Notes: generated from the letters alone by a model not told the origin. 64,000 nucleotides of DNA from Thermoplasmata archaeon UBA184 (GCA_002495185.1 DAEB01000040.1:29184-93183); one strand, 5' to 3'. Shown: positions 3,425 through 39,833, counted from the stretch's first letter. Program-made: numbers and translations.

Positions 3425-4252
3425 ATGCGCCTGAGGTCGCTCTCGGCCACCGAGGCTCGGGTGATTCTCTCCCTCGAGGCCGAGGGAGTCCACGAGCTCT
3501 CCCTGGATTCCATCGAGTCGAGGGCCGCCGTGCACCGTGGGTTCGCGCGGAAGATCGCCCACGACCTCGTCCGCAAGGGTTGGCTCCAGCGGGTCGGGCG
3601 GGGCCGATACCTCCTCAACCCGAGCGAGCGAGGTCCCGAAGCGGTCCCCGACACCGACCCCCTGCGGGCCGGCGGCCACGTCGTACGTCCGTACTACTTC
3701 GGCTACGCGACCGCCGCGGAGCTGTGGGGGTTCCTCCTGCAGGTCGGGCGGGTCTACTACATCGTGACCCCCGTCCGCACGACGGTCACCCTCCAGCATC
3801 CCGCACAGTTCCGGTTCGTGCGGATGCCGACGAACCGGTTCTTCGGCCTCCGCGAGATCCGCCGCCGGGACGAACCCGTGGTCGTGAGCGATCCGGAGAG
3901 GACCGTCCTCGACTGCGCGGACCGCCCCGAGCTGTCGGGCGGGATGGGAGGGGTCGTACAGATCATCGCGCGGGCGAAGCCCCGCCTCTCCTGGGGCCGG
4001 TTGAGCGACTATCTTCGCCGGATGGGGAACCGAAGCCTCGCGCTTCGGGTGGGATTCCTCGCGGAGACGGTCCGGCCCTCCCTCGCGCCCCCCCGAGACT
4101 GGCATTCGCGCTGGCACGTCCGGCCCGACGAACCGTGGGTCCCGCTGGGTCCCCCGCGGACGTTCGGTCGGCGGGGGCCGCACGACCGACGCTGGCATAT
4201 CGTCCGGAACGTCCCCGATAGCGTCCTCTACTCGGAGGTGGAACCGACGTGA
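3425..4252 (+). CDS. abiEi: AbiEi-family antitoxin/transcriptional regulator (type IV TA, abortive infection)
   Basis: N-terminal winged-helix-like segment DLVRKGWLQRVGRGRYLL fits the AbiEi_4 pattern. Its stop overlaps the GTG start of the downstream AbiEii-like gene (GTGA). Confidence 0.65.
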   Translation: MRLRSLSATEARVILSLEAEGVHELSLDSIESRAAVHRGFARKIAHDLVRKGWLQRVGRGRYLLNPSERGPEAVPDTDPLRAGGHVVRPYYFGYATAAELWGFLLQVGRVYYIVTPVRTTVTLQHPAQFRFVRMPTNRFFGLREIRRRDEPVVVSDPERTVLDCADRPELSGGMGGVVQIIARAKPRLSWGRLSDYLRRMGNRSLALRVGFLAETVRPSLAPPRDWHSRWHVRPDEPWVPLGPPRTFGRRGPHDRRWHIVRNVPDSVLYSEVEPT

Positions 4253-5154
4253 TCCCTCGCTCGGTCGCCAATCGATTCGCGAACGTGATGGGGGTCGACC
4301 TCCACATCGCCCAGCAGGAGATCGTCCTCCTCTACGCCCTGGACGCGCTCGCCGGCCACGGAGTCCTCGACCGCCTCGTCTTCAAGGGTGGGACGTACCT
4401 TCGAATGATGGTCACCGGAGACGTGGGCCGCCTCTCCGAGGACCTCGACTTCACGAGCCGGGGCCTTCCCGAGGACCCCGAACCGGACGTCCGGGAAGCG
4501 TTCGCCGCTCCTCATCACGGAGTCGCTTTCGAGGTTCGCGAACCGTACCGGACCCAACGGAAGAACTGGGGCTGCCAGGTCCGATACTCCCACGAATGGG
4601 ACATGGGAGCGTTCCGGTTCGAGGTCAGCTATCGGGAGACGACGTTCCTCCCGGCGGGCCGCTGGCGGCCCCTCCCGCAGCCGTACTTCCCGGCACTGCC
4701 GTTCGTCCCCCCCGAGGTCCCGTCGCTCCGGGTCGAGGAAGCTCTCGCCGAGAAGCTCCGGGCGATCCAGCAGCGCGCCACGGAGCGGGACCTCTACGAC
4801 GCGATGCGCTACGGCCGCAAGGGGTTCGATACCGGGCTCGTGCGCCTCCTCGCCGTCGCGAAGCTCTGGAACGACCGCGAGGCGTTCGACCCCGACCGGA
4901 TCCTCCGGACGCTCTCCGAGGGGCGACGGGAGTGGCCCGACCTCGAGCGACTGATCGGTCGGGCCCGTCAGCGGGACTGGAACCGGGACGCCGCCACCGC
5001 GGCCGAACGATTCGGATTCCTCCGCTCGCTCACTCCGTTCGAGAGAGCGCTCGTCGCCGACGTCCGCCGCCATGCGATGCGCGCGGAGCTCCTCGACCGC
5101 TTCGCGACCTATGCCCTCCCGGAGCGGGGCGGGCGCCCCGCTCGGAACGGTTAA
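4249..5154 (+). CDS. abiEii: AbiEii/AbiGii-family nucleotidyltransferase toxin (DUF1814)
   Basis: VFKGGTYLRMMVTGDVGRLSEDLDFT matches the hallmark nucleotidyltransferase motif of the AbiEii family. 301 aa, translationally coupled to the upstream AbiEi-like gene. Confidence 0.75.
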   Translation: MIPRSVANRFANVMGVDLHIAQQEIVLLYALDALAGHGVLDRLVFKGGTYLRMMVTGDVGRLSEDLDFTSRGLPEDPEPDVREAFAAPHHGVAFEVREPYRTQRKNWGCQVRYSHEWDMGAFRFEVSYRETTFLPAGRWRPLPQPYFPALPFVPPEVPSLRVEEALAEKLRAIQQRATERDLYDAMRYGRKGFDTGLVRLLAVAKLWNDREAFDPDRILRTLSEGRREWPDLERLIGRARQRDWNRDAATAAERFGFLRSLTPFERALVADVRRHAMRAELLDRFATYALPERGGRPARNG

Positions 5155-6782: not shown

Positions 6783-8096
6783 GTGTCTCCTTCATCGCCC
6801 GAAGGGTCATCGGGCAGTATGGTCGCTGCCCCGCCTCCCCCGTCCGCCCCGACCGGTTCTTCGGTGACCTCGCCCCAGCGACGCCGGACGATGTTTCTCG
6901 CGATCGCGGCAGTGCTGATCGTCGCGGTCCTTATCGCCGCGCTGTTCGCCACGGGAATCCTGTCCACCAAGGGAGGTGGCGGATCGGGGACGAGCGGAAC
7001 GCCGTCGACCACCGCCCTCTCGGTCGCGAACGCGTATGCGAACACAACCGTCGGAGGACCCTGGAGCGTGGACGCGCTCTACGGCTTCGACCTCACCGTC
7101 ACGCACACCATTTCTCTCCAACCGTACGACACCAATCCACTCTGCACCTCCTCGGGAACTCAGAACTACACGGTGACGGGGACTTCCGCACCGTACGATG
7201 ACGGCACATTCACGACGTGGCTGGTCGGGTATCTCAACGCGAGCGGCCAGCTCGCGGTGGTCGTGAGCGGCAACGCGGTGGTGGCGCACTACGCCGTGTG
7301 GGGAGGGGCCAGCAACCATTGCTCGGGCATCTACCCGGGTCCCTCGGCGATCAGCACGAGCGGTGTGTCGAGCGAGCAGGCTGCGGCGGCGGCCCGAGCG
7401 AATGGGACCATCGCGTCGTTCATCGCGGCTCATCCGGCCGCGGATGCACGCGCCCTCCTCATCGCCGGGCAATGGACCATCGATTACACGACGTGCGACT
7501 TCTTCTATGACCCGGGAGCACCGGCGCTGGGTGCGAACCTCGAATTCAACGTGAATGCCACCGACGGCGCCTTCTCTCCCCTCTTCACCAACCTACCGTC
7601 CGCGAATTGTGCCGAGCAGTTCTGGTATGGCCAGAACATTCCGGCCGCCGACCTGTTCGCGGTCGGCGACCCCGTCCGAGGTACGTGCGCGACCGGGTCC
7701 ACCTTCGCGACCAACGGATGCCTGGCGGGGGACTTCACCTACCAGCTGACCGTCGGCACTTCGTACCTATCTTTTGGAGGGGTCATCTTCAACGTCGACA
7801 CGTCCACCGGCCCCCTGTACAACGTCCCTTCGCCCGGAGGGTTCTCTGTCGTTGCTCCTTCGAAAACCATCCTGGCGCAAGTCGCGATCCCGGGGGGTGC
7901 ATCGATGACCACGAACGGAGGGGTGGAGACGTTCGGGGTCGGGGAGTCGAGGGCAAACCTCCTCGTCGCCGGTGACACGATCGTCCTCGACATGGGAACC
8001 GCCGACCCGGCTGGGATGGGCTTGGGATTCTCTGCCACGATTTCAGTTCTCATCAACGGTGGGATGGTATTCACTCCGGTCGTCCCGCTCCCCTGA
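6783..8096 (+). CDS. membrane-anchored/secreted protein, paralog A of a lineage-specific family (CATG..NGC..D[FY]TY..GGFSV..LDMG C-terminal module)
   Basis: N-terminal RRR followed by TM helix MFLAIAAVLIVAVLIAALFATGIL. Thr/Ser/Gly/Asn-rich extracellular part with many N-x-S/T sequons. The C-terminal ~150 aa aligns with ORFs 12406..13230 and 33503..34033. Confidence 0.55.
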   Translation: MSPSSPEGSSGSMVAAPPPPSAPTGSSVTSPQRRRTMFLAIAAVLIVAVLIAALFATGILSTKGGGGSGTSGTPSTTALSVANAYANTTVGGPWSVDALYGFDLTVTHTISLQPYDTNPLCTSSGTQNYTVTGTSAPYDDGTFTTWLVGYLNASGQLAVVVSGNAVVAHYAVWGGASNHCSGIYPGPSAISTSGVSSEQAAAAARANGTIASFIAAHPAADARALLIAGQWTIDYTTCDFFYDPGAPALGANLEFNVNATDGAFSPLFTNLPSANCAEQFWYGQNIPAADLFAVGDPVRGTCATGSTFATNGCLAGDFTYQLTVGTSYLSFGGVIFNVDTSTGPLYNVPSPGGFSVVAPSKTILAQVAIPGGASMTTNGGVETFGVGESRANLLVAGDTIVLDMGTADPAGMGLGFSATISVLINGGMVFTPVVPLP

Positions 8097-8317: not shown

Positions 8318-9208
8318 ATGTCAGCGGCAGGGACGATGCCCTCGACCAGCGTCCGGCCTCCGGACACGATCGTTCCCGCTCGCGGCGTAGGCCCCACGAT
8401 CCTTCTGGTGATGCTGGTGGTGATCGGATTGGCGGTCTATGTAGCGATCGATGAGGGGAGCAGTCCGAGTAGCTCGGGTCCGCCGAGCTCCTGCGTTCCT
8501 CCCGGCGGCCCGGGTTGTCCTACGGGGTCCAACGTAACGTTGCAGGTCTTCGTTCCGTACCAACCGGGGCTGGGCCAGAGCATCGTGTCGGTCACCGAGG
8601 GCCTCCCGGTCCCCGTGTCCCTTTCCCTTTCGTCCGCGCAAGTCCCGGGGAACTGGACCGTGTTTTGGGGAGACGGAACCTACACGACCCAGCTCGGGAC
8701 GGGCACTTCCGCGGAGTTCGTCCACACGTACACCGGACTTGGGCTCTTCGCTATCCTCGGCGCGGCGAACCTGGGGAACCGGACGGTGCTCAGCACCGGC
8801 GATCTCGTTCCCATCGAGATCGTCCCGGTCTCGCCGAGCGAGAGTTCGGGCGAGTTCCCGCTGCTCTTCACAAACCTCTCCAACGGCTCGTCCGGGGGGG
8901 TGAACTACCCCTGGGTGCACGTCGCCGGGACCGTCACCGTGTCCGCGCAGTACTCCGCGTTGCCCACGGATACCGGCTATCTGGCACAGCCACCCACTAT
9001 CTTCGGGTCGGCCGGAGCCGACCGGCAGTGGGGCTCCGCCACGGCAGTGAGCGCGACCGCGGCGTACTCGTTTGACTCGCCGGGGATGTACGTGCTCGAG
9101 ATGGTCGGCCCGGTCTTGAACCCGACCGGAACGATCTACCAGAACTACACCTGGTCCGTGTACGTCGCACCCATAGGCATCCCGCTTGAATGCAACGCCT
9201 GCGGTTGA
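8318..9208 (+). CDS. membrane-anchored extracellular protein with a PKD-like domain
   Basis: TM anchor GPTILLVMLVVIGLAVYVAI. WTVFWGDGTYTTQLGTGTSAEFVHTYTGLGLF matches the PKD signature (WDFGDG...HTY). Sequon-rich. Confidence 0.55.
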   Translation: MSAAGTMPSTSVRPPDTIVPARGVGPTILLVMLVVIGLAVYVAIDEGSSPSSSGPPSSCVPPGGPGCPTGSNVTLQVFVPYQPGLGQSIVSVTEGLPVPVSLSLSSAQVPGNWTVFWGDGTYTTQLGTGTSAEFVHTYTGLGLFAILGAANLGNRTVLSTGDLVPIEIVPVSPSESSGEFPLLFTNLSNGSSGGVNYPWVHVAGTVTVSAQYSALPTDTGYLAQPPTIFGSAGADRQWGSATAVSATAAYSFDSPGMYVLEMVGPVLNPTGTIYQNYTWSVYVAPIGIPLECNACG

Positions 9209-9246: not shown

Positions 9247-12200
9247 TCAGGCCAAGCCGGGAGGGGGCTCGGACGATTGACGGCGAACCCGCCTCGTCGC
9301 GACGACCACCGCGCCGATCGCCCCGGCGACTGCAACCCCGAGGACAACGTACCAATCCGTGAGGGGGAGTCCGAGCAAGGTGGTCGGCGCCGGAGCCACG
9401 CGGAACGAGAGCGTCCCGCTCTCGACAGTCACTCCGTTCGCGTCCGTGACGTTGACCATGACATAGAAGGTTCCCGACGCCGAGGGGGTGCATTCCACCA
9501 TCGAGTCGTTCGAGCTGGTACATCCCGTCGGGAGCCCGGACCACGCGAAGCCGAGGGGGCCGCGTCCACCGAGGGTGGTGACGGAGAAGGAGACGAGGGT
9601 CCCGACGACTCCGGAGCTGGAGGAGGAGGCGGGGCCGGTCACCGAAAGCGCAGGGTACACGGTGAACCCCACCGAGCCCTGGACGGGGAGACCATTCGAG
9701 TCCGTGATGGTCACGCTCGCGTTCCGCGTGCCCGATGCCGTCGGAGTACACTTCACCGAGGAGGAGTTCGCCCCGAGACATCCGACGGGGAGGCCGCTCC
9801 ACTGGTAGGTGAAGACGCCGGTCCCTCCCGAGAGACCGGCCGCGATGAACGTCACGTTCTCGCCAAGGTCGATGCTCGCCGGTACGGGAGAGATCCCGAG
9901 GAGGGACGGGTCGTTGTAGACGTGGTAGCTGGTCGTGGTGAAGCTCGTCCCATGGTTCGCGTCGACCACGGTGAGCTTCGCGACGCCCGCGCTCGCATTG
10001 GAGGGAACGCATGAGAGGCTCGTCGCGTTCGCCGAACTGCACCCAGCGGGAAGGTTCGACCACTGGTATTGGTAGGGGCCCACGCCACCGGTGGTGGGGC
10101 CGCTGGTCGCGAAACGGAGGGTCTGCCCGAGGTCCACGGTTTTCGGGAGAGCGGTCAGCGACCCGAGGGAAGGGTCGGAGTGAACGGCGAACGAGACGGT
10201 GCCGCTGGTCCCGACCCCACCCGCGGAGTCGTTGACCTGGACCTGGACGGAAGAGTTGCCGGTCGCTGACGGGGTGCACGTGAGGCTCGCGGAGGAGACG
10301 GGAGTGCAACCGCTCGGGAGCCCTTCCCAGAGGTAGGCGTACCCGCCGGAGCCCCCGGAGACCTTGACCGTGAAGGTGGCCGCCTCGCCAAGGTCGATGG
10401 ACGGGGCCGGAGTTACGGAGGGCGTCGTGACCGACGGGCCGCCCGAGACCACGAACGAGAGCGTCGGGCTCGGGACGAAGAAGCTGCTCGCATCGGTGAT
10501 GTTGACCTGGACGGGATAGGTTCCGGGCGCGGGAGGCGTGCACGTCGGCGCGGCGGTGTTGGTTCGATTGCACGGCGCGGGAAGTCCGCTCCAGCTGAAG
10601 GAGTAGGGGGAGGCGCCGCCCGTCGGGGAGACGGTGAAGGTCACCGGCGCGCCGGTCTCGACCGTCGATCGGCTCGGCGATGGGACTCCGACCGTAGGGT
10701 CGGCGTGGACGGTGAAACTGAGATTCGCGCTCGTGAAGGATCGGCTCGAGGAATCGGTGACCGTGAGGTTGACCTTGTACGTCCCGGTGTTAGTCGGAGT
10801 GCACAAGAGCGTCAGGGTCGTCGAGACACCGCACCCCAACCCCGAGGGACTTGTCTGCCACGTGTACGTGTCCCCGCCCGAGCCGGGCGAAAGAAGGGTG
10901 CTCTCGAAGCTAACCGATTGCCCCAGGTCGACGGTGCCTTGAGTCGGCGCGGGCTTGCTGACCGCCGGGGTGCACCCCTCGGAAACGGTGACGCTCGTGG
11001 TGGACCCCGCGGCCACCAGGCATTCCCCGAGGTCGGTGTGGGACGACGTCGAGTTGACCCATACGTGGTACAGGCCCGGAACCAGGGTGAGGGTCGCCGC
11101 ATCGTTCGTGAAGCGCCAGACGCTCCCAGGGATCGCGACCGTCCCCGAGGGGATTCCGGTCGCGGTGATCGCGATCTCGCCGACCTGGTTCTGAGAATAC
11201 GCCTGAGCCGGCGTCGCGTTCCGTGTCGTCCCGTTGAGCTGGAGGGTGAGGGGAAGTCCCGCCGGGTCGTGCGAGAAGATCGACTGGATGTTGCTGACCG
11301 TCTCCGCCGTGTTGGCTCCGAAGTTCCAGACGGACGGAGTCGCTTCGAAATTGTGTCCGTTCCAGTATTCGAGGCTGGAGGTGAGATGGGTCGGGTTGGC
11401 GGCGGCCGTCGAAGAGCCCCCTCCCGGTCCCCCGATCGCGAGCTCGGCGTCGTAGAACCAGCCGCCGGGGTTGTAGTTGAAACCGTCCACGACGAAGTTG
11501 TTGTCCGCGCTCGTCGCGGTCGCCCAGGGCCAGACGACGTTGTCGTAGGTGACGTAGTAGTTCGTGACCCCGTCCCAGTACTCGAACGCCACTTCGGGGG
11601 TTCCCGACCCACTCATGTAGGACTTTACGAGAACTCCGAAATCCCCGGGGGTTGGCATGTTCTCATTCGCCCCCGGTTGCGTGGTCGCGCCGACGGCGTA
11701 GTAGCCCACGCACCCCGAGATCGGGTAGACCGTGCCGTTCCCCGTGACCGCCGTGTTGTCGAGGCAGCTCGAGCTCGTCGTCATGTTCCAGATGTTGTTC
11801 TCGAACTGCAGGTTCTTGCTCGAGGAATCCATGAACGCGACGTCCTGGATCCAGTAGGCGTACGTGACGCCGGACTGTACGAACTGAAGAACGACGTTCA
11901 GCTGGTCTGAGAAGTAGGTATCCCCGCTCTCCTGGATGTTCATGTTTTGCCAGGAGAAGTTTCCGAGGAACTCGGACGTGCTGTACGTGTAGGGGTTCCC
12001 GCCCTGGCCGACGCCGAAGTCACCGATGCCCATCGGAGCCGGCTCGGAACCGTACCCCCCCGTGGGACTGACCTTCGCCGGAGCAGGGAGACCGATCCGA
12101 TGAACGTGCACCGGGGGAAACGCAATGGGGCGAGAGCCCGGCGCACCGTGCGGCGTAGGGACGGGCACCGAAGGAGGGGTTGTCGACGCAGGATGGGGCT

Positions 12201-12321
12201 CTCCCCAAGAGCCGCCCAGGGCCATCAGGACCGTTCCAATGACCACTCCGAGGGCCACCGACGCGGTGACCTTCCACGTCCGTCGAGATTCCGCGCGAAG
12301 CCGGGGGGTGGGCATAGGCAC
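9247..12321 (-). CDS. large surface protein (1024 aa): signal/TM, ~450-aa N-terminal domain (possibly thermopsin-like peptidase A5), six tandem PKD/Ig-like repeats, C-terminal TM anchor
   Basis: N-terminus MPMPTPRLRAESRRTWKVTASVALGVVIGTVLMALGG. Repeats of ~85 aa each contain Y.W..LP.GC....T...C.P...G (e.g. YQYQWSNLPAGCSSANATSLSCVPSNASAGVAKLTVVD). C-terminus WYVVLGVAVAGAIGAVVVATRRVRRQ. Extremely rich in N-x-S/T. The antisense ORFs 8321..10573 and 10705..11910 were rejected. Confidence 0.7.
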   Translation of the reverse strand: MPMPTPRLRAESRRTWKVTASVALGVVIGTVLMALGGSWGEPHPASTTPPSVPVPTPHGAPGSRPIAFPPVHVHRIGLPAPAKVSPTGGYGSEPAPMGIGDFGVGQGGNPYTYSTSEFLGNFSWQNMNIQESGDTYFSDQLNVVLQFVQSGVTYAYWIQDVAFMDSSSKNLQFENNIWNMTTSSSCLDNTAVTGNGTVYPISGCVGYYAVGATTQPGANENMPTPGDFGVLVKSYMSGSGTPEVAFEYWDGVTNYYVTYDNVVWPWATATSADNNFVVDGFNYNPGGWFYDAELAIGGPGGGSSTAAANPTHLTSSLEYWNGHNFEATPSVWNFGANTAETVSNIQSIFSHDPAGLPLTLQLNGTTRNATPAQAYSQNQVGEIAITATGIPSGTVAIPGSVWRFTNDAATLTLVPGLYHVWVNSTSSHTDLGECLVAAGSTTSVTVSEGCTPAVSKPAPTQGTVDLGQSVSFESTLLSPGSGGDTYTWQTSPSGLGCGVSTTLTLLCTPTNTGTYKVNLTVTDSSSRSFTSANLSFTVHADPTVGVPSPSRSTVETGAPVTFTVSPTGGASPYSFSWSGLPAPCNRTNTAAPTCTPPAPGTYPVQVNITDASSFFVPSPTLSFVVSGGPSVTTPSVTPAPSIDLGEAATFTVKVSGGSGGYAYLWEGLPSGCTPVSSASLTCTPSATGNSSVQVQVNDSAGGVGTSGTVSFAVHSDPSLGSLTALPKTVDLGQTLRFATSGPTTGGVGPYQYQWSNLPAGCSSANATSLSCVPSNASAGVAKLTVVDANHGTSFTTTSYHVYNDPSLLGISPVPASIDLGENVTFIAAGLSGGTGVFTYQWSGLPVGCLGANSSSVKCTPTASGTRNASVTITDSNGLPVQGSVGFTVYPALSVTGPASSSSSGVVGTLVSFSVTTLGGRGPLGFAWSGLPTGCTSSNDSMVECTPSASGTFYVMVNVTDANGVTVESGTLSFRVAPAPTTLLGLPLTDWYVVLGVAVAGAIGAVVVATRRVRRQSSEPPPGLA

Positions 12322-12405: not shown

Positions 12406-13230
12406 CTACGGAAGCGGGAGGGGCGACGTGGAACCCGAGTAGCTTTCGGTTCCGAACACCGTGAACGTGAGCCCGAGCCCGGTCGGGTTCGACGGGCCCA
12501 TGTCGATGAGGATGACGTCGATGGAGGTGAGCGGATACGTGGCGGCGATCCCGGGGCCGTACACGAGCCAGCCCGTCGCCATCGACAGCTGGTTCCCCAT
12601 CTGGGTCGAGTTGCTCTGGGCCTCCACGTTGCCGATGACACCGATCACCGAGAATCCCCCGGAGCCGGTCAGGATCGGGTACTGCCCGCCGGCGGCGGTC
12701 CGCACGGAGAAGAGGACGTCTCCGAAATCCGCCGAGGACGCTTCGATGGTGATGGAGTAGGTGTAATCACCGCCGTTGCAGCCGTTCGAGACGAAGGTGT
12801 ACCCCGTCGCGCAGTTCCCGGCCACCGGGTTGCCCACGGCGAAAGCGCTCCCGATCGGGAGGAGGGACGACGTGAAGGTGATGTTGACCCAGCTTTGCAG
12901 GTAGAGAGTGGTCACGATGCCCGAGGGCGGGGACGCCGTGTAGTTCTGCACCGGTAGCACCGTGAAATTGTACGTCCCCCCATTGACCGAGAACGAGATC
13001 GAATCGCTCGCGCCCTGGACGGTTGATGTCTCCGTCACGCCGTTGAGGGTGACCCCCCAGAGCACGCCCGGAGCAAGGCCGGTTTCTCCGAACACGACCG
13101 TGTCGCCTCCCCCCGGGGTGGAATTCAGTACGAAAAAGCCCCACAGGGCCACTCCGGCGGCGATGATCCCGATGACCAGGAAGACGACGGTGAGGGACTT
13201 GAGGGACGTGGCGGCCCGGGGCCGGCGCAT
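12406..13230 (-). CDS. secreted/membrane-anchored protein, paralog B of the CATG..NGC..LDMG family
   Basis: N-terminal MRRPRAATSLKSLTVVFLVIGIIAAGVALWGFFVL. C-terminal GNCATGYTFVSNGCNGGDYTYSITI...GGFSVIGV...IDVILIDMGPSNPTGLGLTF...PLPLP aligns residue-for-residue with the C-terminus of ORF 6783..8096. Confidence 0.6.
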   Translation of the reverse strand: MRRPRAATSLKSLTVVFLVIGIIAAGVALWGFFVLNSTPGGGDTVVFGETGLAPGVLWGVTLNGVTETSTVQGASDSISFSVNGGTYNFTVLPVQNYTASPPSGIVTTLYLQSWVNITFTSSLLPIGSAFAVGNPVAGNCATGYTFVSNGCNGGDYTYSITIEASSADFGDVLFSVRTAAGGQYPILTGSGGFSVIGVIGNVEAQSNSTQMGNQLSMATGWLVYGPGIAATYPLTSIDVILIDMGPSNPTGLGLTFTVFGTESYSGSTSPLPLP

Positions 13231-13372: not shown

Positions 13373-15679
13373 CTAGGGCTGCAGCGCCACCGTGACAACG
13401 CTCAGGGAGATCCATCCGATCGAGCGTCCGTTCTGGAGCGCGAGGAATCCTCGCAGCTCGACCGTCGGGTATGGGTAGGCGATGTGGAGGGGAAAGCTCA
13501 GTGAAGTCCATTGGGCGGGCGATAACTCCGACGCGTTCACGGGGACCCGGAAGAAGGTGGAGACGTTCTGGCTCCCCAACCACGTGGAGTCCAGGTAGGC
13601 GATAGGACCCGGCGGAGAGGAGGAGTTGGCGGTACCCCCCTTCACGCTGAACGTCGCGACGTAGTCGCCCGGAAGGAACGTCGCGTACGGGCCGTACCAG
13701 ATACCGGCCTCTACGTCCGCGAGGGGCCCTGTCGCAACTGAGGCGATGACAGTCCCCGTCAGACTGGTCGGGTCCGACACGACCCGCCCGGAGGGTCCCA
13801 GGCTGAGGTGGGAGGCGGTGTACTCGTACACCGTCGGAGGCGGTTGGACCTCCCGCACCTGAGGAACGCCCTGGTATCCAAGTTCGAAGAGGTAGATCGT
13901 CCCCGGAAACGAGTTCGAATAGATGTACGCGACCAGGCCGTAGACGGAGCTGTTGAACAGGTCGCTCTGAAGGAAGGCCGGGACGATCAGGAACTCTGAA
14001 GCGTCCGCGAGCACGAAGCGGGGGAGGTTGTTCGGCGAGAACGGGAAGTCCGGCACGGGATTCTGGGCGTTGATCACGAACCAGGGAAGTGGCCAGGCGT
14101 TCGGGTCGTTCGCAACGTAGGGGAACAGCCGGTCGGAGGCCAGGACCTGGCCGTTCGAGGGAATGTAGGAAACGATCCACGGCATCGATGAGGAGGCCGG
14201 ATTCACGGTGTATCGAAACTCATACCCCGGAAGGGGGGTCGCGCCGAAGTTGGCGGTGTTGAACGGCGACATCGCCCCGTCCAACACGAGAATCGCAACG
14301 ACCGTCCCGAGGACGACCCCCGGGACCGCGAACCGGCTCGTCCGACCGGGCAGCGTCCAACGCCGCGGGGCCGGGCGCTCGGTCCGGACACGGCGGAGAA
14401 GAACCACGAGGATGCTCGCGACGAGAAGCAGGCCCGCGGGAACCCAGAAGTACGGTCCGGCGGTGTACCGCAGCAGGCGCGTCGAGCCTCCGGGAACCAG
14501 AGCGAGCGCCATCAGGAATCCGGAGCCGGCCAGCAGCGGCAGGACGAGCAGGAACGAGCGGACCTCCGTCCAATCCAGTCGCTCGAGCTCCCTCAGGCCG
14601 AACACCGCCCCGATCGTGAGCGGGGGGACGGCGATGAGCGCCTGCGAACCGCCGAAGTACGCGGAGAATCCCGGCGCGACGAACACCGAGTAGAGGAACC
14701 ACGGCAGCGAGAGGATCAGGTATCGAGGGGCCAGGATCGGGAGGAACCCGAGGGTGGCGAGCAACAGCAACCAGTACCCGAAGGAATGGGGCAGGGTCGC
14801 CGCATTGGCACCGTAGCCGAAGATGAGCGACAGGCCGCCCGGTCCACCGGCCGTGACGGGGGCCACTCCCAGAACCGCCGGGACCAGCACGTACTGGATG
14901 GCTCGAACGGCGAAGTAGGCGACCCCGGCGAGGACGAGGAAGGCGAGCATGATCCTCACCGGACGGTCCTTCAGCATCGCTCGCCAGGAGAACCGGAGCA
15001 GCTGCCCCCGTTCCACGAGGACCAGAAGGACCACCGCAACGGCGAGGAAGGGGAACACTTCGAGAGTCATCGTTCCCATGACGAACGGCACCAGCGAGAG
15101 CGAGTAGCGTCCCCGCGACACCAGAACGAAGAACGAGAGAATCTCCACGGGGAGGAACGACTCCCAGTGAAAATCGTACATCAATCCGGCCAGGATCGCG
15201 AACGACACGAAGTAGAGGAGGAGGATCGACCCCACCAGCTCGACCCGCCGAAGCGACCCGCGAGCCAGATAGTAGAGCGGGATACCCGAGGCCGCAAAGA
15301 CCGTCGACTGCACCGCGAAGAGCGTGAGCGGGACGGGCCACGCCGCGTACAGCGGCACGACGAGCGCCGCGACGTACGTGCTGTGGACCTGTAGGAAGGA
15401 GTGCACGCCGTAGAACGAGCGGTCCGGGGTCTCGTAGAAGAGCTGGCCGTGGGCCGTCGTCCACAGAAGCTGTTGGTTCACGCCGAGGTCCCAAGCGCTG
15501 GTGAAGAAGTTCTCGTTGCGGAGGTTCGAGAAGTAGGCGATCACGACCGCGTAGGCGGCCAATAGGACCCCGAGGACGAGCCATCCCCGGTAGGGGCCGC
15601 GCAGGAGAGCGACAAGGCCCCGGGTCCTGGTTTCTTCGCGGTTCGGTGTGGGGGGCTGCTCGCTCGGACTCGCTGACAA
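13373..15679 (-). CDS. large polytopic membrane protein (768 aa), GT-C-like/DUF2079-like candidate glycosyltransferase with ~350-aa extracytoplasmic C-terminal domain; paralog of 19792..22260
   Basis: ~12 predicted TM helices. First extracytoplasmic loop FTSAWDLGVNQQLLWTTAHG carries the conserved acidic residue, as in GT-C enzymes. LTLFAVQSTVFAASGIPLYYLARG and the C-terminal blocks (DRLFPYVANDPNAW, SVYGLVAYIYSNSFPGTIYLFELGY, IWYGPYATFLPGDY) are conserved in the paralog. Confidence 0.7.
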   Translation of the reverse strand: MSASPSEQPPTPNREETRTRGLVALLRGPYRGWLVLGVLLAAYAVVIAYFSNLRNENFFTSAWDLGVNQQLLWTTAHGQLFYETPDRSFYGVHSFLQVHSTYVAALVVPLYAAWPVPLTLFAVQSTVFAASGIPLYYLARGSLRRVELVGSILLLYFVSFAILAGLMYDFHWESFLPVEILSFFVLVSRGRYSLSLVPFVMGTMTLEVFPFLAVAVVLLVLVERGQLLRFSWRAMLKDRPVRIMLAFLVLAGVAYFAVRAIQYVLVPAVLGVAPVTAGGPGGLSLIFGYGANAATLPHSFGYWLLLLATLGFLPILAPRYLILSLPWFLYSVFVAPGFSAYFGGSQALIAVPPLTIGAVFGLRELERLDWTEVRSFLLVLPLLAGSGFLMALALVPGGSTRLLRYTAGPYFWVPAGLLLVASILVVLLRRVRTERPAPRRWTLPGRTSRFAVPGVVLGTVVAILVLDGAMSPFNTANFGATPLPGYEFRYTVNPASSSMPWIVSYIPSNGQVLASDRLFPYVANDPNAWPLPWFVINAQNPVPDFPFSPNNLPRFVLADASEFLIVPAFLQSDLFNSSVYGLVAYIYSNSFPGTIYLFELGYQGVPQVREVQPPPTVYEYTASHLSLGPSGRVVSDPTSLTGTVIASVATGPLADVEAGIWYGPYATFLPGDYVATFSVKGGTANSSSPPGPIAYLDSTWLGSQNVSTFFRVPVNASELSPAQWTSLSFPLHIAYPYPTVELRGFLALQNGRSIGWISLSVVTVALQP

Positions 15680-19791: not shown

Positions 19792-22260
19792 GTGGAGACA
19801 AAGAGTGGCACCGATCTCAACGGTGGGCTGCCCGAGCGGAGGAGGGTCGATGAGCCCTGGTCGCCGGCTCGAGCCACTCGACCCGAGCCACCAACGACCC
19901 CGGGACCCCGAGGGATGGTAGGGATGAATCCCCCGCCGGATTCGTCCCAGGAGACCGAGAAAGGTCGAGCGACCGACTCGGAGACAGGCGAGCGCGTCGC
20001 GGGCCTCCTTCCACGGCCCGAGGGTCTCCTGCTGCTCCTCGTCGTCACGGCCTTCTCCCTGCTGTACACGGGGCTCAGCTTCCTTCGATACACCGAATTC
20101 TACGCCGAGAACTGGGACCTCGGAATCAACATGCAGGCGGCGTGGACGAACGACCACGGCTACTTCGCCTTCAGTTCTGCTCTCTCCGAAGGCGTCCGGG
20201 CGCAATCGTTCTACTTCATCCACCCGGCCTACCTGATGTACCCCGTTTCTTGGGTCTACAACCTGGCGCCCTACGCGCTCACGCTGTTCGCGATCCAGGC
20301 GGTGGTCCTGGCCTCGTCGGCGATTCCCCTCTACCTCCTGGGTCGACAGGCGGCCGTGCCCCCGAAGATCGCGTTCGCGGGGATCGCGATCTACCTCGCC
20401 TCTCTCCCCATCCTCTCCGGATTCCTGTTCGACTACCACTGGGAGGCGTTCATTCCCGCGTCGTTCCTTTGGACCTTCTACCTGTGGGGGAAGGGCCGCT
20501 ACTGGTGGGCCGCGCTCCCGGCGACGCTCGGTCTCTTCACGATCGAGGTGTTCGCCGCACTCCTTCTCGCGATCGCCGCATACTTTGCCTGGCCCTACAT
20601 TCGCGCCCTCTTCACGCCTCCGAGGAAGCACTGGGACCAGGTCCGGAGGACCCTCGCCGGTCCGGCACGACCTCTCCTCGGCCTCGTCGCGCTGGCCATC
20701 GTAGGATTCCTCGGGCCCGTCTTCGTGGCGTGGTACTGGCTTCCCTCACTGACCGGCGCGACCCCGGTGTTCCCGCCGCCTCCCCCACACAACATCATCG
20801 GCATTCCGTACTGGGGCGTCTCCGCTTCGAACCTCGGACCTCGCCTGTTCTACTGGCTCATCCTTCTCTCGTCGTTCGGGTTCCTTCCCCTCCTTCACCG
20901 GCAGAGGCTGCTGATCCTGAGCATTCCGTGGGTCCTCTACTCGGTGGTGATGACCCCCAACCCCGCGTTCACTCTGATCCGGTATCACTACTCGTTGATC
21001 GCCGTGGCTCCGCTCGCGATCGGATTCTTGGAAGGATTGGGTGCGATGACCCGCTCATCCGACCGCGAGTCGGTCGCGGGGCTGCCGTTCTGGGGCTGGC
21101 TGGTCCTCCTCGTGCCCGTCTTCGTGGTCGGAGTGATCGCACCTCTCACGTTGATTCGACCGACGACCACGGACCTCTGGGTCGGCCTCGGGATCGCTCT
21201 CTGGGTGCTGGTCGGCTTCTTGGCGATGCGATTCGTCGCGCGCCGGAGGGCATCGACCCCCCCTCGAGACCCCCGCGGAACGGGGCCCGGCCCGGCGAGG
21301 CGTCGCACCGCTCTCCGGGTGACGCTCATCGTCTCCCTCGTCGTGCTGGTCTCGAGCAATATCGCGCTCTCCCCGCTGAATCCGGCGACGTTCCTCGGCC
21401 CGGGGGAGGCGAGCTACTCGTTCACCTACTCGCCGAGTCCGAGCTTCGACCAGATGCCCGGGCTCCTCTCCCACATTCCCTCCGGAGCTTCGGTCTTCGC
21501 ATCGGACAACCTCTTCCCGTTCGTCGCCAACAACCCGCGGGCGTACTCCACGTTCTGGTATCCGGGTCCGATCCCCTATCTTCCGTTCAACGCGTCGAAT
21601 CTGCCGGAGGTCGTCCTCCTGAGCTCGACGCAATGGTTCCTCCCAACGTTCCTGAACGGGGTGCTGTTCAACCAGAGCGTCTACGGGCTCGTCTACGTCA
21701 TCTATGGGAACCAATACCCCGGGTCGATCTTCCTCTACGAACTGGGGTATTCCGGTTCGAGCCACGTGGTCGAGGCAACACCATTTCCGGCGACGACCGT
21801 CCTCTGCGGCAATGATCTTGCGATCGGTCCGTCGGGCTCGGTCGCTCCGCTGTCGGGATCCCGATGCGGGAGCATCATCGAGAGCCGCCCGGCCACGAAC
21901 CTTTCGGGGAACAACGCCACGATCTGGTACGGGCCGTACTCGGACCTGCTCCCGGGCAACTACACCGTCAAGATCTCCCTTCGGGGGGAGTTGAGCGGCC
22001 CCGGGCCGGCCAACTCCGCCGTGCTGGTCATGAACGCCAACGCGGCGGGGGTGCCCTACTGGTACGACGTGGTGGTCTACGAGAATCAGATCTCCCCGAC
22101 GCAGTGGACCAACCTGACGTTCCATTTCTCGCTCGGCGCCCCCCGACCGCTCGCCGAGTGGCGAGGCTACCTCGCCGGTGCGACCGTCAGCGGGACGTTC
22201 GTCCCGGGAAGCTGCCAGCTGAACTACATCGAGGTCGACTACACGTCCGGACCGTACTGA
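19792..22260 (+). CDS. large polytopic membrane protein (822 aa), GT-C-like/DUF2079-like; paralog of 13373..15679
   Basis: FYAENWDLGINMQAAWTNDHG, LTLFAIQAVVLASSAIPLYLLGRQAA, DNLFPFVANNPRAY, SVYGLVYVIYGNQYPGSIFLYELGY and IWYGPYSDLLPGNY are all collinear with the paralog. The start is uncertain (an in-frame Met at 19915 is also possible). The antisense ORFs 19546..20631 and 21055..22125 were rejected. Confidence 0.7.
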   Translation: METKSGTDLNGGLPERRRVDEPWSPARATRPEPPTTPGPRGMVGMNPPPDSSQETEKGRATDSETGERVAGLLPRPEGLLLLLVVTAFSLLYTGLSFLRYTEFYAENWDLGINMQAAWTNDHGYFAFSSALSEGVRAQSFYFIHPAYLMYPVSWVYNLAPYALTLFAIQAVVLASSAIPLYLLGRQAAVPPKIAFAGIAIYLASLPILSGFLFDYHWEAFIPASFLWTFYLWGKGRYWWAALPATLGLFTIEVFAALLLAIAAYFAWPYIRALFTPPRKHWDQVRRTLAGPARPLLGLVALAIVGFLGPVFVAWYWLPSLTGATPVFPPPPPHNIIGIPYWGVSASNLGPRLFYWLILLSSFGFLPLLHRQRLLILSIPWVLYSVVMTPNPAFTLIRYHYSLIAVAPLAIGFLEGLGAMTRSSDRESVAGLPFWGWLVLLVPVFVVGVIAPLTLIRPTTTDLWVGLGIALWVLVGFLAMRFVARRRASTPPRDPRGTGPGPARRRTALRVTLIVSLVVLVSSNIALSPLNPATFLGPGEASYSFTYSPSPSFDQMPGLLSHIPSGASVFASDNLFPFVANNPRAYSTFWYPGPIPYLPFNASNLPEVVLLSSTQWFLPTFLNGVLFNQSVYGLVYVIYGNQYPGSIFLYELGYSGSSHVVEATPFPATTVLCGNDLAIGPSGSVAPLSGSRCGSIIESRPATNLSGNNATIWYGPYSDLLPGNYTVKISLRGELSGPGPANSAVLVMNANAAGVPYWYDVVVYENQISPTQWTNLTFHFSLGAPRPLAEWRGYLAGATVSGTFVPGSCQLNYIEVDYTSGPY

Positions 22261-23325: not shown

Positions 23326-23448
23326 TCGTCGAAATCCGCTATCCCCTCGACCGCTTGAGGCTGCTCGGGCATCGGACGGACCGCGGCGCGACTCCGGGAG
23401 TCTCCCCCGCCTCCGGTGCGAGACCTCGATCGATGCGATGGGGAGAGG

Positions 23449-24522
23449 CTACAGCCGGAGCCGGCACGCGTCGCCGACCAGAAGCTCGATCTCCTCCGGC
23501 ACCGGTGCGACCGCCCGGAGGTCGACGTACCGGCCGATCAGGGAGTCTCGCAACCGGACGGGTCCCGAGATTCGAGCTCCTTCGAGGACGATGCTTCGAC
23601 GGATCGCGCACCCGTTCAACTGGACCCCGTCTCCGATCGACGTTCGGGGGCCGATCTCGGTCCGGCTGCCGACCCGAACGTCACGCCCGATCACCACCGG
23701 CCCGTGAACCGATGCCCCCGATTCGATCACCGAATCCTCTCCGAGCGCGACCGGGCCCTTCAACGTGGCCCCCGACTCCACGGTTCCGAGGACTTCGAAC
23801 TCCGCCCCGGGGCGTGAATCGAGCACGAGGTCGTTCGCATGAAGGAGGTCTTCGGGCGCGCCCGTGTCCTTCCACCAACCGTGAACTCGCTGGACCACCA
23901 CGCGGTCGCCCCGCTCGACGAGCGCTCGGATCGCGTCGGTGATCTCGAGCTCTCCTCGTGCGGAGGGCGCGAGACGGGCGATCACGTCGTGGACCTTCGG
24001 GGAGAAGACGTACACCCCCACGAGGGCCTGGTTCCCCTTCGGGTTGCGGGGCTTCTCCTCGATCGACACGATCTTCTTTCCCGAGAATTCGACGATCCCG
24101 TACTGGTGGGGGTCGGCGACCGTCGTCACCCCGATCACGGCGTCCGCACGCTCGCTCTCGAAGAGCTGGAGGAACGACTCGAGGCCATGCTCGAGCAGGT
24201 TGTCGCCGAGGTACATCACGAACGGCTCTTCCGCGAGGAACGAGCGGGCACAGAGGACGGCGTGGGCCAACCCCTTCGGTTGACCCTGGTTGATGTACGT
24301 GACCTCGAGCCCGAACGCGGCACCGTCCCCCACTGCCTCTCGAATCCCTTCGTGGATCGGACCCAGCACGATCCCGACCTCGGAGACCCCGGCGCGCGCG
24401 AGCTGCCGGAGCCCGTAGAAGAGGATCGGCTGGTTCGCGATAGGGATCATGTGCTTGTTCCCGGTCGAGGTCAGCGGGCGAAGGCGCGTTCCGTGGCCGC
24501 CGGCGAGGAGAAGCCCTTTCAT
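23449..24522 (-). CDS. rmlA: glucose-1-phosphate thymidylyltransferase, long form with C-terminal left-handed beta-helix domain
   Basis: MKGLLLAGGHGTRLRPLTSTGNKHMIPIANQPILFYGLRQL is the G-x-G-T-R-L nucleotidyltransferase signature. Hexapeptide repeats lie in the C-terminal third. Start set at the internal Met (24522); the 484-aa ORF in the track has a spurious N-terminal extension. Confidence 0.85.
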   Translation of the reverse strand: MKGLLLAGGHGTRLRPLTSTGNKHMIPIANQPILFYGLRQLARAGVSEVGIVLGPIHEGIREAVGDGAAFGLEVTYINQGQPKGLAHAVLCARSFLAEEPFVMYLGDNLLEHGLESFLQLFESERADAVIGVTTVADPHQYGIVEFSGKKIVSIEEKPRNPKGNQALVGVYVFSPKVHDVIARLAPSARGELEITDAIRALVERGDRVVVQRVHGWWKDTGAPEDLLHANDLVLDSRPGAEFEVLGTVESGATLKGPVALGEDSVIESGASVHGPVVIGRDVRVGSRTEIGPRTSIGDGVQLNGCAIRRSIVLEGARISGPVRLRDSLIGRYVDLRAVAPVPEEIELLVGDACRLRL

Positions 24523-24742
24523 GGACCCATCTCCGGAGGCAAGACCCCTTCTAAGCGTTCGCCAAGACGGCCCGCGCCTGCTTGTCCCCCGGCCCCCGAC
24601 GGACCCGCGGTCCGCCTCGGTCGGAGCGTGGGAATCGTTTTTACGGCGAAGCGCGACATGGGGCCTCGTAGGCGGCTGTGAAGGAAGTTCCTGTCCCGGT
24701 CCGGGACCCCGATGACACCCCGATCTTCGCCCGAAGGGGTCG

Positions 24743-26071
24743 ATGTCCGAGAGCGTAGGAGCGGCGCCGGCATCGCAGCCGCCATCGGGACTCAAGCGCG
24801 TGCTCGTCTTCCCCGGGGGGACGGAGGTCGGTCTCGAGATCTGGCGCTCGCTCCGCTGGCACCGACAGGTCGAGCTGTATTCGGCGGGGGCACCGGTTTC
24901 CAACCACGCCCCCTACGTGTTCGCGCGGCACTTCGAGGTGCCGATGGTGACCGACCCCCGCTGGTTCCCGATCCTGAAGGAGATCGTGGAGCGGGAGCGG
25001 ATCGACTTCATTTTTCCGGGCCATGACGACATCGTCGAAGCGCTGGCCCAGCACCGAGATGACCTTCGCGCCCTCGTCGTGACGTCCCCCACCGAAACCT
25101 GCGAAACGTGCCGATACAAGTCGCGGACGTACGATGCGCTCTCGGGCGTCGTCCCGATCCCCCGCCGGTACTCCGCCGCCGCCGAGGTCGACGCGTTCCC
25201 CGTGTTCGCCCGGCCCGACCGCGGTCAGGGCTCCCAGGACGCGCATCTCGTCGCGGACGCGTCCGAGCTGGAGGCGCTGCTGCTTCGCGCCCCCGGCCGC
25301 TACATCGTCACGGAGTACCTTCCGGGCGAGGAGTTCACGGTCGATTGCCTCACGGACCGAGAGGGGAGGCTGATCTACTGCGCCGGGCGCCGTCGCATTC
25401 GCGTTCGCAACGGCATCTCGGTCGACACCGTGACGGTGGACAATCCGACGTTCCAGGAGTATGCGACGGCCATCAACCGTCGCCTTCGGCTTCGGGGGGG
25501 CTGGTTCTTCCAGGTGAAGTTCTCGAAGCAAGGGACCCTCACGCTCCTCGAGGTCGCGCCCCGCATCGCGGGGGCGATGGCCCTGGACCGGGTGCGCGGA
25601 GTGAACATCGCCCTGCTGAGCTTGTTCATCGTCCAAGGGATGGACGTGGAGGTGCTGCCGAACCCGATGCCGGTCGAGATGGACCGGGCGCTCACGAACC
25701 GGTATCGGTTCGACCTCCGATTCACTCGGGCGTACCTCGACCTGGACGACTCGCTGATCGTTCGGGGTCAAGTGAACACCGAGCTCGTCCAGTTCCTGTT
25801 CCAATGCGTGAATCGCGGGGTTCGCTTGACGCTCCTCACTCGCCACGCGGGAGACCCGCTCGAAACCCTCCGTCGATTCCGCCTCGCCGGCGTGTTCGAC
25901 GAGATACGAACCGTGCCGGCGGGAACGCCGAAGAGCTCCGCGATCGATCAGACCCGCGACGCGATCTTCATCGATGACAGCTTCGCCGAGCGGCGGGAGG
26001 TCGCGCGGGCCACGGGCCTGCCGACCTTCGACAGCAGCATGGTCGAGCTTCTTCTCGACGACCGGTCCTGA
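24743..26071 (+). CDS. ATP-grasp domain protein fused to a C-terminal HAD-like hydrolase domain
   Basis: Central YIVTEYLPGEEFTVDCLTDREGRLIYCAGRRR..GGWFFQVKF is an ATP-grasp fold. C-terminal ~140 aa (VRLTLLTRHAGDP...DAIFIDDSFAERREVA) looks like a HAD-type hhhhDD motif. The antisense ORF 24641..26080 was rejected. Confidence 0.6.
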   Translation: MSESVGAAPASQPPSGLKRVLVFPGGTEVGLEIWRSLRWHRQVELYSAGAPVSNHAPYVFARHFEVPMVTDPRWFPILKEIVERERIDFIFPGHDDIVEALAQHRDDLRALVVTSPTETCETCRYKSRTYDALSGVVPIPRRYSAAAEVDAFPVFARPDRGQGSQDAHLVADASELEALLLRAPGRYIVTEYLPGEEFTVDCLTDREGRLIYCAGRRRIRVRNGISVDTVTVDNPTFQEYATAINRRLRLRGGWFFQVKFSKQGTLTLLEVAPRIAGAMALDRVRGVNIALLSLFIVQGMDVEVLPNPMPVEMDRALTNRYRFDLRFTRAYLDLDDSLIVRGQVNTELVQFLFQCVNRGVRLTLLTRHAGDPLETLRRFRLAGVFDEIRTVPAGTPKSSAIDQTRDAIFIDDSFAERREVARATGLPTFDSSMVELLLDDRS

Positions 26072-32774: not shown

Positions 32775-33389
32775 TCAACGGGGTTCCGCCTTGGACCGGC
32801 GCCTCAGACGGTTGACCTCCCGCTCGATCGCGTCCAACTCGACGAGGACCTCGTCGAAGGTCGCGGGGTCGTACGCGGGCTCCGGCTCGATGGGAGCGAC
32901 CGGCGCGGGGACGGGCTCGGCCGAACCGGCGGGCTCCTCGGGCCAGGTTTCGCGCCATGGTTCGGCAGGAGATTGGGAAACCACCACATTGGGCCGGGGC
33001 CGGCCGAACTCCTTCTTCGCCTCCTCGACAGCGGACACCTGCCTCTGGGGAGACGCGGCCTGGACCGGTCCCGTCTTGGGCTGGTCTTCCTCCGCGAAGA
33101 AGAAGGCAACCATCCCGCCCGCGGCTGCAACGAACCCTGTAGCGAACAGGAGGATCCATAGGGGAATCCGGCCGGGGAGCAGGACCAGGGTCCCCCTCGA
33201 AGTGAGGAAGGCCCCGACGAATAACACCAGAGCCAGAAGGAAGAGCGGAGCCCCGCTTGGGAGAGCAGCCCACCCGCTAGGGATTCGCTTCGCCGAGGAC
33301 TGTCGCGCGTCGGTCACCCTTCGCCCCACCGTGTTCGAACGCACTGGAGAGATGGCCTTCGAATCAGATAGTCGTTTTCGGTCCACCAA
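32775..33389 (-). CDS. hypothetical membrane protein (2 TM) with acidic Pro/Glu-rich C-terminal tail
   Basis: TM segments APLFLLALVLFVGAFL and IPLWILLFATGFVAAAGGMVAFFFA. Preferred over the overlapping + strand ORF 32791..33462, which is Arg/Ser low-complexity. Confidence 0.35.
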   Translation of the reverse strand: MVDRKRLSDSKAISPVRSNTVGRRVTDARQSSAKRIPSGWAALPSGAPLFLLALVLFVGAFLTSRGTLVLLPGRIPLWILLFATGFVAAAGGMVAFFFAEEDQPKTGPVQAASPQRQVSAVEEAKKEFGRPRPNVVVSQSPAEPWRETWPEEPAGSAEPVPAPVAPIEPEPAYDPATFDEVLVELDAIEREVNRLRRRSKAEPR

Positions 33390-33502: not shown

Positions 33503-34033
33503 ATGAGGAAGTCGATTCCACGAAAGACAATCTATGCCGCGACGATCGTCGCGATTTTCGCGATGGTGGGCGGGTTCGCGGTGGCGAGTTTCGTGAACTC
33601 AATCACCGTTACGTCGACCGGCCAGAACCTCGGTACCGTCGTAGGAGGCAACACCGTGTGGGGCGGAGGATCGGTATCCGTGAGCCTTCAGCAGGCCACT
33701 TCTACGGCTGCCTGTGACCTATCGCCAGTGGCTGTTGCCGCCACTTCGGTCTACTTGATCGGAGGGGCTGCGTGTGCAGCTTCGGGCAGCACTGAATGGT
33801 ACGAGGTGTTTACCTTCCCCACCGTGGCGAGCTATCCGGCCACCGGCTCGGACACGTTCTACTTCTACGTGGTGGGCGGCGCCGCGGGCTCGGCCCAACA
33901 GAGCTTCACCATCTCGGGAGGGGGAACCGCCGTCACCAACATGGTGCTCACCGTCTACCTCGACATGGGACCGTCGACGGCCAACCCGACCCCCATCACG
34001 GGTGGAATCTCGTTCACGGTGAACGGGAGCTGA
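33503..34033 (+). CDS. small secreted/anchored protein, paralog C of the CATG..NGC..LDMG family
   Basis: N-terminal MRKSIPRKTIYAATIVAIFAMVGGFAVASFV (signal or pilin-like anchor). C-terminus MVLTVYLDMGPSTANPTPITGGISFTVNGS matches the motif in 6783..8096 and 12406..13230. AGGAAGG precedes the ATG. Confidence 0.55.
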   Translation: MRKSIPRKTIYAATIVAIFAMVGGFAVASFVNSITVTSTGQNLGTVVGGNTVWGGGSVSVSLQQATSTAACDLSPVAVAATSVYLIGGAACAASGSTEWYEVFTFPTVASYPATGSDTFYFYVVGGAAGSAQQSFTISGGGTAVTNMVLTVYLDMGPSTANPTPITGGISFTVNGS

Positions 34034-39781: not shown

Positions 39782-39833
39782 ATTGCACTCAGCCTGGAAA
39801 GGGCCACAGTTTCGTGATTTCTCGGCCATTACC

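Follow-up and report, generated by a model that had tools for sequence, protein, structure and literature searches.

The locus

This study concerns a 64,000-nucleotide stretch of DNA from Thermoplasmata archaeon UBA184 (GCA_002495185.1 DAEB01000040.1:29184-93183), hereafter the window, and three of its genes, here called A, B and C, which the original prediction had described as three copies of a lineage-specific secreted domain. Two of them, A and B, carry such a domain at their C-termini, and the same domain recurs in pilin-like proteins of other Thermoplasmata. Positions are counted from the first letter of the window. The features on which the argument turns are the following:

Gene A, 6783..8096, + strand: GTG start, 437 amino acids (aa); predicted Pro/Ser-rich cytoplasmic tail, transmembrane (TM) anchor, N-terminal domain of ~215 aa, shared C-terminal domain.
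A hydrophobic helix, 6891..6962, + strand: residues 37-60, MFLAIAAVLIVAVLIAALFATGIL, after QRRRT; predicted uncleaved N-in/C-out signal anchor.
A N-terminal ectodomain, 6996..7637, + strand: residues 72-285, two helix-plus-sheet modules; found in A-type members only.
A shared C-terminal domain, 7638..8093, + strand: residues 286-437, ending in VPLP; identified by BLASTP against B, domain profile and hhalign (99.9%).
Gene B, 12406..13230, - strand: ATG start, 274 aa; short basic N-terminus, TM anchor, middle domain of ~85 aa, shared C-terminal domain.
B hydrophobic helix, 13126..13194, - strand: residues 13-35, after MRRPRAATSLKS, read from the sequence.
B middle domain, 12862..13113, - strand: residues 40-123, 'GLxxGxxWxVxLNG ... 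YNFTV', traced with phmmer; found in B-type members only.
B shared C-terminal domain, 12409..12861, - strand: residues 124-274, ending in LPLP; identified by domain profile and structure model.
Gene C, 33503..34033, + strand: ATG start, 176 aa; TM-anchored orphan whose membership in the family is not demonstrable.

An open reading frame (ORF) check returned the coordinates, strands and lengths originally given for the three genes, and each product does open with basic residues, with a hydrophobic helix behind them. The GC content at third codon positions (0.77-0.89) is typical for coding sequence in the window. Public annotation starts A at an internal ATG (position 6891), which yields a 401-aa protein (P0034). 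The 437-aa GTG form appears more likely, because it retains the QRRRT stretch before the helix, as homologues do; the latter are 400-450 aa long with an identical layout, and their Pro-rich, basic N-terminal tails resemble that of the longer form. A protein identical to B (P0001) is present in public data as a 'hypothetical protein', the name given also to C. Orthologues of B show 61-62% identity. Only two homologues of C were found, at 71-72% identity.

Homology of A and B, and the status of C

BLASTP aligns 134 aa of A and B (E=2e-23; identity 40%), which fall within the last ~150 residues of each protein. Two domain hidden Markov models (HMMs), built from 15 and from 168 sequences, were searched against the 862 stop-to-stop ORFs of the window; each selected A and B alone (E=1e-44 to 1e-65), with full-length matches of ~148 positions (E ~1e-54 and 1e-44 for A, ~1e-64 and 1e-57 for B with the two models). 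Alignment of A to the domain family with hhalign gave a probability of 99.9%. All the motifs originally quoted for the family (CATGxTFxxNGC, D[FY]TY, GGFSV, (L/I)DMG and a final PLP) occur in both proteins. One might suspect a compositional artefact, as small residues (Ser/Thr/Gly/Ala) abound in A, B and C and spurious ORFs are numerous at a GC content of 65-68%. This idea is refuted, and we give it virtually no credence: the BLASTP value of 2e-23 is composition-adjusted, the homologues form 292 clusters with invariant positions, and the fold is predicted with confidence.

The place of C is another matter. Proper scoring leaves the A-B half of the three-way alignment intact and removes C, so that the shared domain is present in two copies rather than three. 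No BLASTP match was found between A and C, and the one between B and C covers 26 residues (E=0.003) at 'ILIDMGPSNPT / VYLDMGPSTANPT'. Against both domain HMMs C scores about 0 bits; against 161 family members phmmer gives a best E of 0.11, and no sequence bridges the gap. A three-sequence alignment of C reached 5-6% probability over 23-29 columns in hhalign, where shuffled versions of C reached up to 3.6% and other window proteins 0.1-0.6%. The likeness of C to A and B is confined to a C-terminal motif of ~25 residues, 'VYLDMGPS..NP..G.SFTV' in C, and LDMG is the only hallmark that C has: the Cys-loop, DYTY, GGFSV and terminal LxLP are all missing.

On the results of BLASTP, the two HMMs, phmmer and hhalign with its window and shuffle controls, we reject C as a third copy. 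Judged by its sequence, C is better described as a separate orphan of similar general layout, either unrelated to A and B or diverged beyond detection. That it is a highly diverged third copy, outside the reach of sequence methods, seems to us unlikely. The layout would fit (a Ser/Thr/Gly-rich domain of ~140 aa with two Cys, set behind a TM helix and a basic N-terminus), as would the position of the motif 'v(Y/I)LDMGps..NP..G.sFtv.G' near the C-terminus and a neighbourhood that likewise holds glycosylation genes. Nevertheless, the HMM scores, the hhalign values comparable with those of shuffled sequences, the want of a bridge, the missing hallmarks and the mere two homologues all tell against it.

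An undescribed domain restricted to Thermoplasmata

The domain spans ~148-150 residues, and each of its hallmarks (Cys-x(9-11)-Cys loop, D[YF]xY, GGF[ST], I/L-D-x-G and terminal LxLP) is found in A and B. Nearly all of 203 domain copies have the Cys pair, set around a loop of 9-12 residues and at times shifted by one column; the two Cys would form a disulfide. Across the 166 near-full-length copies the Asp of 'IDMG' is invariant and there is 98% conservation of the Gly and of the Phe of 'GGFS'; ~90% of members end in [LVI]-x-L-P. Some proteins contain two or three domains in tandem. Their internal copies end in the same strand before the chain continues, hence a free C-terminus is not essential. 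AlphaFold2 (AF2), given a 15-sequence alignment, models the B domain as an all-beta sandwich of 7-8 strands, with a mean local confidence (pLDDT) of 94.2 and a predicted template-modelling score (pTM) of 0.89.

This fold has no recognized counterpart in the libraries searched. Pfam returned nothing for A and B at E<=1 except a noise match to the CC domain, and nothing consistent at E<=5 for 15 aligned domain sequences; there was no match in NCBIfam or in a PDB sequence search, and a Foldseek comparison of the domain model with PDB and BFVD gave no significant match. The domain can accordingly be called undescribed, as was first suspected. PKD, CARDB, DUF11, Big and He_PIG were considered as identities and rejected, no Pfam match coming near the gathering threshold. 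PKD, CARDB and DUF11, which had been named at the outset as examples of known domains that might account for the shared region, are also extracellular beta-sandwich modules of archaeal envelope proteins, and PKD repeats occur in a neighbouring thermopsin protein; however, none of the three matches A, B or the 15 aligned domains. The best PDB matches in Foldseek are weak and involve Ig-like or adhesin folds (TM-score <=0.42). They include the DEv-IgG folds of the MSCRAMM proteins SdrG, SdrE and FnBPA, a Gram-positive pilus backbone and antibody V domains (TM-score 0.37-0.42, E=0.008-0.03). These proteins, too, are extracellular, all-beta and surface-displayed, but none attains E<=1e-3, identities are 7-14%, root-mean-square deviations are 6-12 Å, and there is no sequence relationship.

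A word-indexed search found 17 proteins with the domain. When 1.84 billion cluster representatives were searched exhaustively with an HMM, the family grew to 292 clusters at E<=1e-3 (87 at E<=1e-30), and in essentially all of them the domain sits at the extreme C-terminus. Every member that bears an organism name comes from an uncultured metagenome-assembled genome (MAG) labelled 'Thermoplasmata archaeon' or 'Candidatus Lutacidiplasmatales archaeon', which bears out the lineage restriction that had been proposed. A scan of 185,579 species genomes, which was keyed on one peptide pattern and is therefore an undercount, returned eight loci, all in soil or peat Thermoplasmata MAGs. In the published description of the Lutacidiplasmatales the GC content is ~69%, thermopsins are prevalent, archaellum genes are absent and novel genes make up a high share (PMC9287336). 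The GC content of the window (65-68%) and its large thermopsin gene match these traits; the source organism is probably an uncultured, high-GC soil or peat member of the Thermoplasmata, similar to Lutacidiplasmatales.

Anchors and pilin signals

Complete members always have an N-terminal membrane element, which can be of three kinds. The commonest, to which A and B belong, is a plain hydrophobic helix that follows basic residues and often a Pro-rich tail. In the second, a CxxC...CxxC zinc ribbon precedes the TM helix. The third is a genuine class III signal of archaea, whose sequence hardly varies (RKR(A/G)|VSPIIATILLVAITVVLAAVLY). Sorted by N-terminus, the 203 domain copies comprise 84 TM-short, 37 A-type, 17 B-type, 16 zinc-ribbon plus TM and 28-31 pilin-type sequences. 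A zinc ribbon would lie in the cytoplasm, and this together with the basic residues before the helix points to an N-in/C-out topology. The extracellular placement first suggested for the A and B domains is consistent with this picture, given the N-terminal anchor after basic residues, the Cys pair and the presumably cytoplasmic zinc ribbon of the paralogues. Domains from different anchor classes are about as similar (identity 0.37-0.44) as domains of one class (0.36-0.50), which argues that the module has switched anchors repeatedly.

The pilin-type members deserve closer attention. PF07790 (Pilin_N) scores above its gathering threshold in four of them (P0078, P0134, P0140 and P0161), and in a profile search of 90% clusters it was found in 17 of 36 matches; JGI names for these PF07790 members are 'archaeal type IV pilus assembly protein PilA' or 'flagellin-like protein'. 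The proteins are ~205-220 aa long and their domain starts 10-15 residues past the class III helix, a spacing that makes the domain the globular head of the pilin. Tandem pilin genes, each with the domain, number two at one locus (L010) and three at another (L011), and adjacent short and long Pilin_N genes occur at two more (L024 and L025). As read from these architectures, the same domain forms the head of type IV pilin-like proteins in other Thermoplasmata.

This layout is that of the PF07790 archaeal pilins (former DUF1628), such as Haloferax PilA, Sulfolobus AapB and Cuniculiplasma CdiPB, and some 30 family members share it: a class III signal and helix, a domain head within ~10-15 residues, and genes in tandem. 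Solved archaeal pilins have beta-sandwich heads, like the AF2 domain model (PMC12448462). None of them is among the best 50 PDB matches in Foldseek, where no match is significant. CdiPB is a 135-aa protein with a six-strand head and three helices, and this is not the domain of A and B (PMC12448462).

The pair or trio of pilin-type genes recurs as an arrangement (L010, 3393..5562; L011, 318..3487; L024/L025, 10001..12375), in which a short protein of ~210 aa accompanies a long PF07790 protein of ~440-525 aa. At L010, L024 and L025 these genes adjoin a phosphomutase gene and a Trm5-like gene. No type IV filament (TFF) ATPase or platform protein was found around them, within up to 10 kb on each side at L024/L025 and a shorter distance at L010 and L011.

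Could A and B be pilins themselves? Class III signals had been proposed for B and C. PF07790 gives nothing at E<=1 in A, B or C, and a pilin-signal HMM built from 28 pilin-type N-termini of the family scores 6.5 bits for A (E=0.067), -0.2 for B and 0.1 for C, as against 64-98 bits for true pilin-type members. The two proposed signals are therefore not supported; what survives of the pilin-like idea is that the domain heads genuine PF07790 pilin-like proteins elsewhere in the Thermoplasmata. Inspection by eye of the site before the helix shows that K-S|L in B fits a permissive [K/R]-[G/A/S] motif, whereas R-T|M in A and K-T|I in C do not. The Sulfolobus peptidase PibD accepts G, A or S in the -1 position. 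The K-S of B is kept in its two closest orthologues and is not conserved across B-type members. As to co-occurrence with assembly machinery, the Pfam-scanned substantial genes of the 64-kb window include no prepilin peptidase, TFF ATPase or platform protein; this is a test of low power, because pilin-type paralogues elsewhere also lack adjacent machinery.

One could still envision A and/or B as type IV pilin-like proteins whose divergent class III signals are cut by a peptidase of the PibD/FlaK type, and which are assembled into a filament with PF07790 paralogues or placed at its tip or base. The domain is a true pilin head in the paralogues, the order of helix and head is pilin-like, and the K-S before the B helix has been retained in the nearest relatives. 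We nonetheless consider this improbable. PF07790 is missing, and the HMM scores lie far below those of the RKRA|VSPIIATILLVAITVVLAAVLY members; A has T at position -1; a K/R-[GAS] motif precedes the helix in just 20 of 119 plain-TM members; and no machinery is encoded in the window. Helix and head are also set apart by spacers (215 and 85 aa), unlike in the short pilin-type members. It is in these respects (signal, spacers, neighbouring machinery) that A and B differ from the PF07790 pilins.

Spacer domains and gene context

The regions that separate anchor and domain are distinct in the two proteins. Residues 72-285 of A are modelled by AF2 as two helix-plus-sheet modules (pLDDT 76, pTM 0.77) and match nothing in Pfam, in PDB sequences or among PDB folds (best E=0.049, TM-score <=0.22). 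PepSY, cystatin and hotdog-like identities were considered and set aside, the best Foldseek matches, double-hotdog thioesterases, having E>=0.05 and a TM-score of ~0.2. The middle domain of B has no Pfam match; with phmmer it was retrieved from 17 other family proteins, but from no other ORF of the window. An origin as a thermopsin-derived repeat was rejected, since neither the thermopsin protein nor any further ORF of the window resembles it.

The gene for this thermopsin protein lies next to B:

Thermopsin protein with PKD repeats and C-terminal TM segment, 9247..12321, - strand: Pfam thermopsin, E=2.8e-68.

The 1024-aa product contains at least five PKD repeats and is anchored by a TM helix at the C-terminus, and its gene is directly downstream of B, on the same strand, after a gap of 84 bp. 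The pair recurs at two further loci, L017 and L019, where B is 61% and the thermopsin protein 75-79% identical. As these genomes are closely related, the linkage is weak functional evidence. It does invite the thought that the domain is a ligand- or glycan-binding module (of the lectin or carbohydrate-binding-module type) or a partner of a protease, and that B works with a co-transcribed thermopsin, for instance as a surface tether for substrates or for the protease itself, instead of serving as a structural coat protein. The invariant Asp and the conserved disulfide loop could conceivably form a binding site, and MSCRAMM adhesins are among the weak structural neighbours. We find such a role doubtful, given that the loci that keep the pair are so close, that no fold match is significant, and that, thermopsins being abundant in general, no further link to them is seen for A-type and pilin-type members.

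Glycosylation genes do surround the three genes, as had been pointed out, among them two glycosyltransferase family 4 (GT4) genes, several of family 2 (GT2), two DUF2079 genes, and genes for a DegT aminotransferase, an ATP-grasp protein, nucleoside diphosphate (NDP)-sugar epimerases/dehydratases and sulfatase-family proteins. A conserved linkage of the family to such genes was sought and rejected, for none is seen at the eight genome loci or at A-type loci. Nor are the proteins rich in N-x-S/T, contrary to what was first thought: A has five sequons against 3.9 expected from shuffles, B five against 2.9 and C one against 1.4. Enrichment is found in neighbours, the thermopsin protein having 19 sequons where 11.2 are expected.

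A second enriched neighbour is a 296-aa TM-anchored protein (8318..9208, + strand), with six sequons against 1.8 expected (0.3% of shuffles reach six) and a sub-threshold PKD_4 match. Its homologue at L017/L019 is the N-terminal part of a protein of ~1029 aa with a faint PKD_4 match, encoded divergently from the B orthologue. Two DUF2079 membrane paralogues of 768 and 822 aa (13373..15679, - strand; 19792..22260, + strand) lie around GT4/GT2 genes and are candidates for polytopic glycosyltransferases of an envelope pathway. Divergent from C is a 204-aa gene without a Pfam match (32775..33389, - strand), kept at 40% identity beside the C orthologue in a related contig (L015, 9401..9886); C and this gene may form a unit. 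Close to C there is also an 816-aa protein with nine FG-GAP repeats (35787..38237, - strand; E=1.2e-86), probably a surface protein.

Other features of the window

Between 38000 and 50000 the GC content falls to 52-57%, as compared with 65-68% elsewhere in the window. This low-GC stretch includes:

GT2 genes, 38750..39781 and 48249..49145.
GT4 genes, 43027..44259 and 45358..46485.
S-adenosylmethionine (SAM)-methyltransferase gene, 44465..45319.
Sulfatase-family gene, 46562..48085.

It also contains an ORF of 1136 aa without a Pfam match (39681..43091), and looks like a separately acquired glycosylation island. A PIN-domain gene is found at 49578..50021, and an AbiEi antitoxin/AbiEii nucleotidyltransferase toxin pair at 3425..5154 (+ strand). 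At 23449..24903 (- strand), inspection by eye suggests a probable sugar-1-phosphate nucleotidyltransferase that starts from an internal Met (MKGLLLAGGHGTRLRPLT...). Two + strand ORFs in the same region, 23416..23817 and 23839..24681, have a first-codon-position GC content of 0.83-0.84 and no Pfam match, and are probably spurious.

Discussion

The interpretation that we favor, and regard as probable on balance, sees A and B as ectoproteins anchored N-in/C-out in an envelope without an S-layer, and built with a lineage-specific module of the kind that heads pilins. Each would be held by a single, uncleaved TM anchor and would expose the domain at its distal C-terminus, with spacers of ~215 aa in A and ~85 aa in B as links. 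The domain itself would have a short loop closed by the Cys pair, the invariant Asp in the 'IDMG' strand and the terminal L-x-L-P strand. A structural or adhesive role appears most likely, namely as components of a non-crystalline protein coat that replaces the S-layer. This function is proposed by analogy. In Thermoplasmatales a crystalline S-layer is lacking, and the cells bear an exterior protein layer, dense and unordered, of ~20 nm (PMC12448462). That layer (Gaines et al. 2025, PMC12448462) is a coat of membrane-attached proteins in the same class of organisms, and of the kind that TM-anchored A and B would build. It belongs, however, to the Thermoplasmatales, whereas A and B come from another, uncultured order, and the connection that we draw to it is conjectural.

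Several points weigh against this interpretation. Apart from the JGI names given above, the family members are all 'hypothetical' proteins in public data. The topology, the lack of cleavage and the disulfide of A and B are properties that we infer. B is paired with a thermopsin gene only in close relatives, maybe through shared ancestry; A-type orthologues lie in unrelated housekeeping contexts, and their gene context is not conserved. Finally, with no sequon enrichment in A or B, nothing specific marks them as glycoproteins.

It is tempting to carry the surface-coat proposal one step further. The domain would mark a surface system peculiar to soil Thermoplasmata without an S-layer, with one and the same head module mounted both on polymerizable class III pilin stalks and on non-cleaved anchors (plain TM, or zinc ribbon plus TM). 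The anchored copies, A and B among them, would not be mere passive coat components: retained in the membrane, they could make head-to-head contacts with pili and thereby dock, nucleate or anchor them, or else they could be what the exterior protein layer is mainly built from. We put this forward as a long shot. If true, it would explain how a cell that has no S-layer keeps hold of its filaments. How archaea without an S-layer build their envelope and hold their filaments is presented as an open question in PMC12448462.

Soil and peat Thermoplasmata such as the Lutacidiplasmatales are uncultured and their genes are mostly novel (PMC9287336). For annotators, the present work supplies a new domain model, that of a confidently foldable family of ~300 clusters outside Pfam and PDB. 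Archaeal surface proteins and pilins with an extracellular Ig-like module are familiar objects, no new mechanism is shown, and the importance of the finding is moderate in this respect; that a single module is used both for the head of pilins and for ectodomains held by a membrane anchor comes as a modest surprise. Those who study archaeal envelopes gain in A, B and their relatives concrete candidates for surface-coat or pilus-associated proteins.

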